Origin: an uncultured bacterium
GTDB taxonomy: Bacteria; Desulfobacterota; Deferrimicrobia; J040
Reading direction: 5' to 3'
NCBI GenBank assembly: GCA_964429585.1
Contig: CAYSCN010000010.1
Span: 4,622-68,621, forward strand
DNA length: 64,000 nt
The position numbers and the translations under genes were made by a program. The notes beneath the pieces are model-generated. The model searched no databases. It had not been told where the DNA came from and worked only from the letters and a program-made list of their open reading frames with translations. Below are positions 15,235-26,088 of this stretch, in pieces. Each line of letters opens with the position of its first letter. The first letter of the stretch is position 1.

Positions 15235-16593
15235 GTGCCCCAAGTAGGCCAAATGAGAGAGAGCTTCAAATTACTCATCACCCTGATAGTTTTGTTTTCG
15301 GCGGTTTCTCTTTCCCTTGCCGGCGGAGAAAAGGTAATAAAGGGGATAGACAAAACCAGGATAATCAAGTCCCAGGACAAGCCTCACGACGTACTGAAAA
15401 AAGCCTGCTACGCCTGCCACCCGGGGGAAAAATATGATTTCTGGATGTTGATTTACGAGGGGAAGGAGCCCCGTATAACGGTGGAGAGGAAGCTCACTCC
15501 CTTCGGAACTGGAGTGGGAGCGGCCACGGAGGGAAAGGGAACATTCAACTCGCACGAGAGTCTCACCTGCAATTTTTGCCACTATGAAAATCCCGCAAAA
15601 GGCAAGCCCAGGTTCATCGTCGACCCGGAAGGGCTCTGCAGGATTTGCCACCCTGCCACGGTGGACCACCATTATCCAGCGGAAAAGGTCAAGGATAAAG
15701 TGGTGGATCTGATAAGGGAGAACAAGCTTCCTGGACTTGCCGGTGAATTCAACTGTTACACCTGCCATAAGATACACGACTCTGTTTTTTCCATGAGAGA
15801 TGATTACAGGAAGGCTCTCGAAGAACTGGAGGTTCCGAATCCTCACGGGAGCAAGGTTTTCTGCGCTACGTGTCACGCGGGAAAAATCAGGAAGGGGGGC
15901 GAAGTAAGGTTCGTCACGGGCCTCGACATAGACGGGCTTTGCCTCCGCTGCCACGGGAAAGAGGGAATACCTTCTTCTCCTCATGTATGGGGTGTCACTT
16001 CGACGGAGAAAACGTGGAAGATGGATTACGTGGGGTATCCCTTGAGGAGGGGAAAGTTGACCTGTCAGACGTGCCACGATGAGGTCTGCTATGATCCCAT
16101 AGATCCGGAAAATCCGAAGTTCCTGAGAGGAGGACCATACGCGAGCGAGGACGAATTCTGTTACAAATGCCACGTCAATACGGATGTCGCTTTTTCGAGC
16201 CCCCACAGGCAAATCGACCAGTTTGGGAGGATAATTGAGGAAAGCTGCCTGTTCTGTCACGTGGGTGTTCCAACGGGCGCAGAGGGAGACCCGAATGTCC
16301 GGCTCGCAGGAGACGAGGTGGGAATATGCGGGACTTGCCACGATATAGTCCCACATCCCGGGGTGAATCACCTGATAAAGCTTCCTCCGAGAATGCTCAG
16401 GAGAAAACGGGAATATGAGAGAAGGCATCTGGTAAAGATTCCCCTTGATGATGAGGGAAACATAAGGTGCAGCACGTGCCACAATCCTCATGCCAAGGGA
16501 GTTATAAAGGGGGAGGCAGGCGTGGGGGCTGGTTCCAAGTGGCGCGTTGCTGACTTCAAAGAAGTGTGCGCTCCGTGCCATGGGCGTTATTGA
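15235..16593 (+). CDS. dodecahaem c-type cytochrome (12 CxxCH), secreted
   Basis: 452 aa; signal peptide; 12 CxxCH motifs counted by eye (CYACH, CNFCH, CRICH, CYTCH, CATCH, CLRCH, CQTCH, CYKCH, CLFCH, CGTCH, CSTCH, CAPCH). Confidence 0.85.
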   Translation: MPQVGQMRESFKLLITLIVLFSAVSLSLAGGEKVIKGIDKTRIIKSQDKPHDVLKKACYACHPGEKYDFWMLIYEGKEPRITVERKLTPFGTGVGAATEGKGTFNSHESLTCNFCHYENPAKGKPRFIVDPEGLCRICHPATVDHHYPAEKVKDKVVDLIRENKLPGLAGEFNCYTCHKIHDSVFSMRDDYRKALEELEVPNPHGSKVFCATCHAGKIRKGGEVRFVTGLDIDGLCLRCHGKEGIPSSPHVWGVTSTEKTWKMDYVGYPLRRGKLTCQTCHDEVCYDPIDPENPKFLRGGPYASEDEFCYKCHVNTDVAFSSPHRQIDQFGRIIEESCLFCHVGVPTGAEGDPNVRLAGDEVGICGTCHDIVPHPGVNHLIKLPPRMLRRKREYERRHLVKIPLDDEGNIRCSTCHNPHAKGVIKGEAGVGAGSKWRVADFKEVCAPCHGRY

Positions 16594-16617
16594 AGAATGC
16601 AAATAAAGGAGTGAGCG

Positions 16618-24776: not shown

Positions 24777-26088
24777 AAGCAAGGAAGGAAGAAGCGGGAA
24801 GGGCATTTCGGTCGGAATAATAGGTGCGGGTCCCGCCGGGAGTTTTACTGCCCTTAACTTTTTCAGGTTTTCCCGCGACGCGGGAATTCCCTGTAAGGTG
24901 ACCCTTTTCGACAGAAAGGACTTCCACGCAGTGGGTCCTAGAGGTTGCAACATGTGCGCCGGGGCGATTGGATATGTAACCTACGAGAAGATCCGATCAC
25001 TGGGCCTTTCCCTGGATGATAGAGTTGTGAGGAGGATTGCCGACGGCTACGTGTTTCACGGGATGCGAAACGAGGCGAAGATTTTTCACCCGGAAAGAGT
25101 GGGGATTTACACGGTTTTCAGAGGTGGTGGGCCTGTTTTGTCCCAGGAAGTGCCTTATATGAGCTTCGACAGGTTTCTCCTGGACGAATGCATAAAGAGG
25201 GGAGCGGTGTTCATAAACGACAGGGTGATGGAGATCGAGGCTTGCGGAAGAGGAGGAGGCCCCCCGTATTCGGTGAAGATAGAGGGTGGCTGGGAAGAGA
25301 GCTTCGATTTTCTGGTGGGCGCATTTGGGGTGAACACGACCATTTCGAGAAAATTCCTGCCCCGTTACGAACCTCCTGAGACCTGGCACACCTGTCAGGC
25401 GGAGGTTGCAGTGGACCCGGTTTACATAAGGAGAGTCATGGGGAACCTGATTCACGTGTTTTCCACTGTGAGCAGGAAAATTCGTTTCCTGGCCATAACT
25501 CCTAAGGACAGATATTTGACCATCACTGCCATAGGGGAACACGTGAAAATCGGGTATCTGAAGGAGGAGCTGGAGAACAACCCCGTTATAAGGAAATTCA
25601 TGCCCTCCGAATACGAGATTCTCTGTCACTGTCATCCTCAGATGCCTGTCGGTTGTGCCAGGAATCCCGTGGAGTGGGGAGCTGCGGTAGTGGGAGACGC
25701 TTTCACCTCCAGATACCTGAAGGATGGTATAGGGTCTGCGTTTGAAACGGCGAGACGGCTGGCGTCCACGGTTATCGAGAGGGGTGCGTACAAGGATGTT
25801 CTCGAAAAATATTATGTTGCTCCCTGCGTGAAGAAAATACACAGAGACAATAGATACGGGAAGGTGTTATTCGACCTCTACGAGAGGATTCTCAGGAGGA
25901 GGTTTCTCTCGGATATGTATATAAGAGGTGTGAAGAGAGAAGGAGAGGACGCGAGTCTTGAGGGGGCGCACCTGACGAGGATACTCTGGGGCATTTTCGC
26001 GGGGGACCAGCCCTACAGTGAGATCATGAGGGATGTTTTGCGTGCAAAAACGATGTTGAATTTTTTGCGAATGCTTGTTATTTCTTAA
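24769..26088 (+). CDS. FAD-dependent oxidoreductase (geranylgeranyl-reductase / flavin-monooxygenase superfamily)
   Basis: 439 aa; GIIGAGPAGS dinucleotide-binding motif at the N-terminus; VVGDAF...G GD motif; 8-nt overlap with the 30-haem cytochrome gene. Confidence 0.7.
   Translation: MIESKEGRSGKGISVGIIGAGPAGSFTALNFFRFSRDAGIPCKVTLFDRKDFHAVGPRGCNMCAGAIGYVTYEKIRSLGLSLDDRVVRRIADGYVFHGMRNEAKIFHPERVGIYTVFRGGGPVLSQEVPYMSFDRFLLDECIKRGAVFINDRVMEIEACGRGGGPPYSVKIEGGWEESFDFLVGAFGVNTTISRKFLPRYEPPETWHTCQAEVAVDPVYIRRVMGNLIHVFSTVSRKIRFLAITPKDRYLTITAIGEHVKIGYLKEELENNPVIRKFMPSEYEILCHCHPQMPVGCARNPVEWGAAVVGDAFTSRYLKDGIGSAFETARRLASTVIERGAYKDVLEKYYVAPCVKKIHRDNRYGKVLFDLYERILRRRFLSDMYIRGVKREGEDASLEGAHLTRILWGIFAGDQPYSEIMRDVLRAKTMLNFLRMLVIS

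Follow-up and report, generated by a model that had tools for sequence, protein, structure and literature searches.

What is a TonB-type motor doing among multihaem cytochromes? The question is raised by a run of ten plus-strand genes (15253-24776) in a 64,000-nucleotide (nt) stretch of DNA from an uncultured bacterium of the class Deferrimicrobia, here called the window (part of contig C10 of a 2.34-Mb genome that is 100% complete). Dissimilatory iron reduction has been predicted from genomes for the Deferrimicrobia (MBNT15), and the words TonB and ExbB do not occur in that text (PMC9386147). An original prediction, made from the window alone, suggested that the genes serve a reductive iron-acquisition system. 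At the level of sequence, we find a fixed ten-gene cassette, a dedicated motor that looks intact, and an unlinked barrel operon that is inherited together with the cassette. Conserved haem-wire genes with their own motor, and a large outer-membrane pore that is co-inherited with them, suggest that some iron-cycling bacteria have a machine, so far undescribed, in which membrane energy serves to build or run an electron conduit to the cell surface.

Layout of the cassette

The ten genes encode, in order, a 12-haem cytochrome, ExbB, ExbD, a protein with a TonB/TolA fold, an anchored cytochrome with about seven haems, a cytochrome b-TPR protein, a trihaem cytochrome, an NHL propeller, a DUF4177 protein and a 30-haem cytochrome (Table 1). 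Packing is as tight as predicted (intergenic distances from -22 to +24 nt), and the stop of the tonB-like gene does overlap the start of the ~7-haem cytochrome gene (ATGA at 18514-18517). The estimate of about 50 c-type haems holds: there are 49 CxxCH motifs (12, 5, 2 and 30 in the 12-haem, ~7-haem, trihaem and 30-haem proteins), and ~52 haems when conserved variant sites are counted. Shuffled versions of these proteins had means of 0.006-0.23 motifs and a maximum of 4 (1000 shuffles each). A simple pattern scan found no lipobox in any cassette gene, and there was no Rfam match across window positions 10000-29500.

The predicted gene list changed at two points. It had missed the 68-amino-acid (aa) DUF4177 gene, and it had included a flavoprotein that lies outside the cassette. 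The flavoprotein gene directly follows the PEGA/dtxR genes in 10/18 cassette-free relatives and does not adjoin the cassette in other families; we therefore regard it as a core neighbour and not a cassette member. The cassette itself we read as an accessory block of ten genes at a core site, since in all 18 cassette-free loci the fur-feoB-dtxR region continues to a flavoprotein, ftsB-like, GGDEF or argS gene without cassette genes.

The ExbB-ExbD-TonB-like motor

ExbB and ExbD pass the Pfam cut-offs, which bears out that part of the predicted TonB module. The transmembrane Asp of ExbD and the Thr and Glu residues of ExbB are channel residues whose role is known from work in E. coli. The Asp is kept in 30/30 rows, and ExbB keeps T125 (30/30), E153 (29/30) and T158 (30/30). 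The conserved ExbB tail may reflect only its overlap with the exbD start.

The third component has no Pfam or NCBIfam match (Pfam TonB_C does not recognise it), but it does have a TonB/TolA fold. Its modelled C-terminal domain (pLDDT about 85) has TonB/TolA domains as all of its top 12 structural matches, and its ESM look-alikes score 0.96. The His of the SHLS motif in the N-terminal helix, H20, is kept in 38/39 rows. With a transmembrane helix carrying a His, a linker and a TonB/TolA-fold domain, the protein is a transducer of the TonB/TolA type. Pattern scans with the single protein found nothing, and the domain had no plasmid match. Its only stand-alone use seen is in a 2076-aa protein with HEAT-like repeats (by eye) that ends in the TonB-like domain and is encoded away from any cassette (P0063; G102:C59, L062:6393-12623). 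Three metagenome contigs (L066, L076, L083) carry a subfamily with two repeated beta-rich linker inserts, and one 12-haem partner there has a 13th haem motif.

By this comparison the motor is dedicated: four cassette genomes show no TonB-dependent receptor. The cassette operon contains no such receptor, and in 4/15 cassette genomes we found neither a receptor barrel over the cut-off nor a plug domain (G101, 100% complete; G258, G287 and G102, 91-95%); at 91-100% completeness this is a receptor "not found" and not a proven absence. The single TonB-dependent receptor of the host genome, on contig C32, best matches B12 receptors, lies beside cobalamin genes and has its own exbBD-tonB. In the order of that locus, receptor-exbB-exbD-tonB, the cassette has the 12-haem gene in the receptor's place. 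When the TonB-like domain (residues 163-272) and the 12-haem protein (residues 24-446) were paired in a complex prediction, the score was 0.00 twice, which we count neither for nor against contact.

The other ExbB-like copies read in the genome each have their own context: tol-pal (C9), the receptor locus (C32), a locus that we take to be AglRS/GltG-like (C31) and flagellar stators (C7). In a tree, one branch (support 94/96, just under the tool's mark) separates the 25 cassette ExbBs from 15 paralogues. The C31 locus (L130, C31:14627-20004) encodes an ExbB, two ExbD-like proteins and a TonB_C protein, and also occurs in G101, G258 and Deferrisoma camini. We also found a TPR-protein-exbB-exbD locus in D. 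camini, G102 and G258 (L116, L118, L119), with no tonB seen beside it and a GGDEF gene next in 2/3; its ExbB is the paralogue nearest the cassette ExbB by identity (43-47%).

Cytochromes and other redox proteins

The 12-haem protein is the best conserved cassette cytochrome. It has 12 candidate distal ligands for its haems, nine His that are invariant in 51 rows together with H139, H392 and M257. Its N-terminal beta-sheet region has no match in cassette-free relatives; in six cassette-free genomes with related cytochromes, the first ~100 residues are unmatched. Its profile gave a single weak match to Protein Data Bank (PDB) sequences, and its model had no fold match above Z 2.5.

The ~7-haem protein has five CxxCH motifs, one Cx3CH motif that is invariant (30/30 rows) and a second, longer-spaced site, which agrees with the predicted haem number, as do the 12- and 30-haem proteins. 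The protein predicted to be c7-like is a trihaem cytochrome by its motifs, with two CxxCH and one variant site that is canonical in Deferrisoma. Cytochrome c7 is a putative identity for it: neither the window copy nor the D. camini copy has a Pfam match, and PF14522 gave a weak, below-cut-off match in one homologue.

The cytochrome b has four helices and conserved His at 23, 52, 66, 154 and 169, of which 154/169 form an FdnI-like pair; it has no PDB sequence match. Together with the C-terminally anchored multihaem c subunit, this four-helix di-haem cytochrome b gives a CbcBA/CbcL-type layout. The 12-haem, 30-haem and propeller proteins have signal-peptide-like N-termini without a lipobox. The most conserved cassette gene is DUF4177 (63-96% identity); in every locus whose flank was read, it directly precedes the gene for the 30-haem protein. 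The 30-haem orthologues of one family (f24; L110, L111; G102, G062) have a C-terminal Asp-Tyr repeat tail.

Table 1. Features of the cassette and its surroundings in the window
Feature	Position	Strand	Remarks
sigma-70-type promoter (11/12 matches) and overlapping Fur-box-like palindrome before fur	10593..10639	+	in this class, transcription from here may read through into the cassette
core operon: fur, feoB, Cys-rich small open reading frame, dtxR-feoA, PEGA protein	10672..15230	+	found whether or not a cassette is present
12-haem c-type cytochrome, paired-CxxCH type	15253..16593	+	signal peptide; cassette-specific N-terminal beta-sheet/haem-1 region; GTG start at 15235 possible
ExbB/TolQ-family motor subunit, cassette-specific clade	16618..17283	+	PF01618 E 1.5e-32
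ExbD/TolR-family motor subunit, transmembrane Asp D24	17264..17689	+	PF02472 E 3.1e-27
TonB/TolA-like force transducer, unnamed family	17699..18517	+	S16/H20 in the N-terminal transmembrane helix; linker disordered, with a single helical stretch; C-terminal domain of TonB/TolA fold
~7-haem cytochrome c, CbcA-like layout	18514..19275	+	signal peptide; C-terminal membrane anchor
four-helix cytochrome b (FdnI/HydC-like) with C-terminal TPR domain, probably cytoplasmic	19265..20218	+	PF01292 E 8.4e-6, TIGR01583 E 8.3e-6, both below cut-off
small trihaem cytochrome	20208..20747	+	N-terminal hydrophobic segment
NHL beta-propeller	20726..21610	+	signal peptide; PF01436 E 7.9e-11
DUF4177 protein, 68 aa	21634..21840	+	no signal peptide
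30-haem c-type cytochrome, paired-CxxCH repeats	21843..24776	+	signal peptide
geranylgeranyl-reductase-like flavoprotein, outside the cassette	24769..26088	+	match to TIGR02032 below cut-off (E 4.1e-8); also found at the empty site

Conservation and distribution

The gene order is kept across six families of the phylum, two in the class and four outside it (labelled f23, f24, f51 and f62). In these four, the cassette lies in unrelated genomic contexts without iron genes. Family f23 includes D. camini (WP_025321258.1), which is described as a dissimilatory Fe(III) reducer (PMC6137239). The ~7-haem cytochrome is fused to the cytochrome b in 3/4 f51 genomes, and in f24 the DUF4177 and 30-haem genes are relocated together to another site. 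On a tree of FeoB and DtxR (29 rows) the cassette is scattered, with eight gains or losses, six of them forced by supported branches. Four f23/f62 genomes have the cassette starting just after tRNA-Pro(CGG) (L051:17017-17093, L054, L064, L107), which could reflect a shared promoter or an old integration site.

The TonB-like profile matched 59 clusters among 1.84 billion representatives. In a sample of 301 genomes of the phylum it had strong matches in 13, a count that leaves out 25/38 genomes with weak N-terminal matches only (E 1.6e-9 or worse). The DUF4177 orthologue is found in the same 13 genomes, and the 12-haem protein in these and in G200, whose contig ends inside exbB (6/20 genomes matching only from position 97 on are left out of this count). 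Of 34 metagenome loci, 29 extend 300 nt or more downstream, and in 28 of these a multihaem gene directly follows the tonB-like gene; the five shorter ones were left out. The linkage of exbBD-tonB with cytochromes is thus conserved in relatives, and is not the chance arrangement that had been considered.

A co-inherited barrel operon

The cassette proteins have no barrel family match (Pfam, NCBIfam), which confirms the predicted absence of a porin-like barrel from the island. An outer-membrane partner encoded elsewhere had been proposed, and three candidate barrels of the host were tested in 17 cassette genomes and in 17 members of the class that lack the cassette. A strong candidate emerged on contig C14 (33749-35560), which a single query found in 16/17 cassette and 2/17 cassette-free genomes. 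Within the class, it is present in 7/7 cassette genomes vs 4/34 cassette-free ones. The barrel profile has full-length matches in the same 14/301 phylum genomes as the cassette, leaving out 3/17 genomes with partial matches (E 1e-13 to 5e-11). Over five independent pairs, the barrel follows the cassette 4.5 times on average and never goes the opposite way; a control porin scored 0.6.

The barrel is acidic and shows strand alternation over residues 30-599 with no gap of more than 30 residues, so it is predicted to be plug-less and is not a TonB-dependent receptor. It has no MtrB, Ext or PDB sequence match. The ~600-aa barrel is the first product of a conserved operon (26121-35560 of C14, minus strand, unlinked to the cassette). 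The other products are a PelC/GNA1162-like lipoprotein, an NHL propeller, a TlpA-type redoxin, a fusion of a redoxin with a decahaem cytochrome, a GAF-GGDEF protein and, though not in every lineage, a SurA-like peptidyl-prolyl isomerase (PPIase). The matches of the lipoprotein to GNA1162 and PelC are weak (E 0.017-0.026); a "split TolB" reading of it was dropped, as there was no profile match to TolB. Giant cytochromes are encoded upstream of the operon in the host (33 and 40 motifs) and in two other genomes.

The two other candidates were rejected as partners. A barrel-like gene on C5 was found in 12/17 cassette vs 15/17 other genomes, and a barrel on C8 had strong matches in just 4/34 genomes. 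The C5 gene (L127, C5:5763-9388) occurs class-wide with 5-haem and 16-haem lipoproteins and is probably part of an ordinary porin-cytochrome conduit. Several genomes of the class have an M6-family metalloprotease with a CFI-box-CTERM domain just upstream of the C14 barrel (L126:10604-14020), which is a possible cargo or sorting signal. In G062 (L061, L111, L142), a stop or frameshift appears to split each of three genes, those for the cytochrome b, the 30-haem protein and the barrel, from joint decay or assembly error.

Proposed mechanism

Our best reading of the cassette is a machine powered by proton motive force (PMF) that assembles or exports a cytochrome conduit from quinol to the cell surface, with the motor acting on the barrel complex or on its cargo; we give it a probability of roughly 0.45. 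We see a little less than an even chance that the cassette and the barrel operon are the two loci of one envelope machine, with the cassette as its inner half, and that this machine serves respiratory extracellular electron transfer.

By analogy with CbcL and CbcBA of Geobacter, the cytochrome b and its anchored ~7-haem partner would pass electrons to or from the quinone pool. Judged from known families, a periplasmic wire would be made up of the 3-, 12- and 30-haem proteins. ExbBD would use the proton gradient, and the TonB-like domain may grip and pull a beta-strand that belongs either to the barrel complex or to a cytochrome being moved as cargo; the best candidate is the N-terminal sheet that is peculiar to the 12-haem protein of the cassette. 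The pull could seat, thread or release folded multihaem cytochromes through the barrel, giving a wire from quinol to the cell surface. Electrons would probably flow outward, to Fe(III) or similar acceptors. More tentatively, this may be a new class of PMF-driven export or assembly machine, in which an ExbBD-TonB-fold motor, permanently tied to a quinol oxidase, draws cytochromes of 12 to 40 haems in their folded state into or through a plug-less barrel of ~30 strands with a PelC-like ring beneath. One continuous wire would then link the quinone pool with the cell surface, and electron export would be coupled to mechanical work.

Several observations weigh against the export or assembly machine. 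In the transducer, S16 is kept in only 13/39 rows and is Ala in 26/39. The fold matches of its domain are modest (best Z 6.7, root-mean-square deviation 2.8 over 79 residues; best Foldseek E 0.045). Nine of the 14 genomes matched by the barrel profile contributed rows to that profile. The independent-pairs test has a median p of 0.0625, a value below which p cannot fall because there are only five pairs. Three candidate barrels were compared, so other genes may track the cassette equally. Four genomes of the class have the barrel operon without the cassette and lack the TonB-like family, so the motor is not strictly needed by the barrel operon. The barrel-like gene on C5, beside its lipoprotein cytochromes, could carry electron export without the cassette, and the terminal GAF-GGDEF gene of the barrel operon also fits signalling. 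Any physical contact between these proteins, and the target of the motor, are putative.

Alternative functions

The motor might act only on cassette proteins in the periplasm, positioning, tensioning or switching a wire of the 12- and 30-haem proteins, with the barrel operon as the next step of the pathway and no contact with TonB. It could, for example, pull on the strand just before the haem ligand His45 of the 12-haem protein. The survival of the barrel operon without the motor in four genomes is consistent with this, as are three features of the 12-haem protein described above: its gene in the receptor's place, its conservation and its unmatched first ~100 residues. We nevertheless find the idea doubtful. 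The TonB/TolA motors described in PMC12204202 send force to outer-membrane-associated targets. The cassette, moreover, has no lipobox or barrel match that would anchor a protein against the pull.

A redox- or surface-sensing, adhesion or motility machine, with a Tol-type motor as in Agl-Glt and with haem chains reporting redox state to the GAF-GGDEF protein, is improbable. TPR and propeller proteins are usual in Agl-Glt-like machines, and a GAF-GGDEF gene follows the decahaem gene in all 11 barrel loci with that flank read. However, ~52 haems and a quinone-type cytochrome b would be a large cost for a sensor, and the host and three other genomes have the separate AglRS/GltG-like locus.

It is very unlikely that the motor energises haem or iron uptake through a non-canonical barrel, although ExbBD-TonB usually serves import. 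Such uptake would supply a cell that needs haem for about 400 binding motifs: the host genome has 38 open reading frames (ORFs) with at least two CxxCH, 409 motifs altogether, and one classical receptor. Against it stand the plug-less barrel, the lack of a Fur-box-like site before the cassette outside the class (given below) and the neighbours of the barrel, which are folding and thiol-redox proteins; we noticed no binding protein or ABC permease in 13 barrel loci (start sequence, BLAST).

Iron genes beside the cassette

The original prediction placed the island directly after fur/feoB/dtxR-feoA and proposed that its cytochromes reduce Fe(III) for import by FeoB under Fur/DtxR control. The operon region is the same, but feoB does not adjoin the cassette: a Cys-rich 61-aa ORF, dtxR-feoA and the PEGA protein lie between. 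The Cys-rich ORF (13170-13355, plus strand, between feoB and dtxR-feoA) is kept in all 21 aligned loci and has a weak zinc-ribbon match; a FeoC-like role for it is a guess.

Some observations in this class favour Fur control. The cassette begins 22 nt after the last gene of the operon, and it occupies this post-feo site in both families of the class. A near-consensus promoter (10593-10621) overlaps a Fur-box-like palindrome (10621-10639), and the palindrome is conserved before fur in 26 genomes of the class, cassette or none, although its pattern was written after the alignment had been seen, so that 26/26 is partly by construction. A matrix derived from it found four further sites scoring at least 21 in the genome; scans with Fur and DtxR consensus sequences were uninformative (best cases 10-11 of 200 shuffles). 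We saw no strong plus-strand terminator between the operon and the cassette, so Fur-controlled read-through is possible in this class.

The conserved link to iron genes and the Fur box are found only in this class; the other families lack them. Outside it, none of 11/11 regions upstream of the cassette has a Fur-box-like site (scores at most 4.4, vs 19-30 at the class sites), and feoB lies away from the cassette in 5/5 genomes checked, far away in D. camini. With feoB elsewhere, no such sites and the cassette after tRNA-Pro in f23/f62, we predict that iron acquisition is not the conserved purpose of the cassette. Within the class, dtxR-feoA is present in 40/41 genomes and the 12-haem gene in 7/41, so reductive iron uptake with FeoB is poorly supported; the 18 cassette-free loci have the feo operon on its own, and 52 haems would be a costly outlay to gain iron. 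We leave it a slim chance.

Finally, a chance position of exbBD-tonB among the cytochromes, where it would serve ordinary receptors, has next to no chance of being right: 11/15 cassette genomes searched do have a classical receptor, but it is contradicted by the order fixed over six families, the overlapping genes, the clade that the cassette ExbBs form apart from others and a TonB family that was met in hardly any other context.

Significance

How large multihaem cytochromes or wires pass the outer membrane is treated as an unanswered question, with a porin-like route favoured, in PMC13712944. If the export or assembly machine is real, it would add a new task to the short list for the ExbBD motor family and name an energy source for cytochrome export. 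Searches of the open-access literature turned up no account of an ExbBD-TonB motor that serves cytochromes alone; supplementary gene tables (for example of PMC9386147 or PMC12204202) could list the cassette. The mechanism of Fe(III) reduction in D. camini has been reported as undescribed (PMC6137239). The proposal is testable because both loci are intact in this cultured Fe(III) reducer, where the barrel gene lies at 2602997-2604811. In metagenomes, the pathway would be recognisable by three specific markers, namely the barrel, the DUF4177 gene and the TonB-like domain.

Comparison with known systems

In type IX secretion and PelB-PelC export, a large barrel has lipoprotein and PPIase helpers, and the proton-driven type IX motor extracts folded cargo. 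The likeness is by analogy: the type IX motor belongs to a different family (GldLM), and the sequence hints here are weak (PorV family E 0.003, PelC E 0.026).

The Ton system has the same parts, ExbB, an ExbD with a transmembrane Asp and a transducer with a transmembrane His and a TonB-fold domain, in the same exbB-exbD-tonB order. The cassette operon differs in having a 12-haem cytochrome instead of a receptor (four carriers show no receptor), a transducer missed by Pfam TonB_C and a co-inherited barrel without a plug.

Tol-Pal, Agl-Glt and vWA-type transducers use the same motor family for a non-import task and have TPR and propeller genes nearby, and the function of such motors must be read from gene context (PMC12204202). 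The cassette, however, has no tolB or pal, its ExbB is apart from the TolQ clade, and the genome has separate tol-pal (C9) and Agl/Glt-like loci. The word cytochrome is absent from the main text of this 2025 motor survey (PMC12204202).

CbcBA of Geobacter pairs a four-helix b-type cytochrome with a c-type cytochrome of seven haems, which a C-terminal helix anchors (bioRxiv 10.1101/2021.04.15.440034; PMC13591261). The cassette pair has this layout, and f51 has a CbcL-like fused form. Compared by published description, the cassette cytochrome b has five conserved His with a last-helix pair (FdnI/CbcL-like), whereas CbcB has three and takes a fourth from CbcA. The cassette protein also has a C-terminal TPR domain, motor genes in its operon and no sigma-54 regulator beside it.

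MtrCAB, Pcc and Ext conduits and OmcE/OmcS nanowire clusters share with our two loci a large barrel, beta-propellers and clustered multihaem cytochromes, here with a decahaem gene beside the barrel; no motor is described for them in the part of PMC13712944 consulted. Unlike MtrCAB and Pcc, the cassette shows no barrel match and no lipobox, PF11854 is not over the cut-off in the genome, and the co-inherited barrel has no sequence match to MtrB or Ext. Among the OmcS, OmcE and OmcZ nanowires, the 12-haem model matched OmcE at just Z 2.4, and the 12-haem protein has 12 candidate ligands for 12 haems. The cassette and its barrel operon fit none of the Ton, Tol-Pal and porin-cytochrome types and yet resemble parts of each; we regard them as a system of a new kind, although every component belongs to a known protein class.

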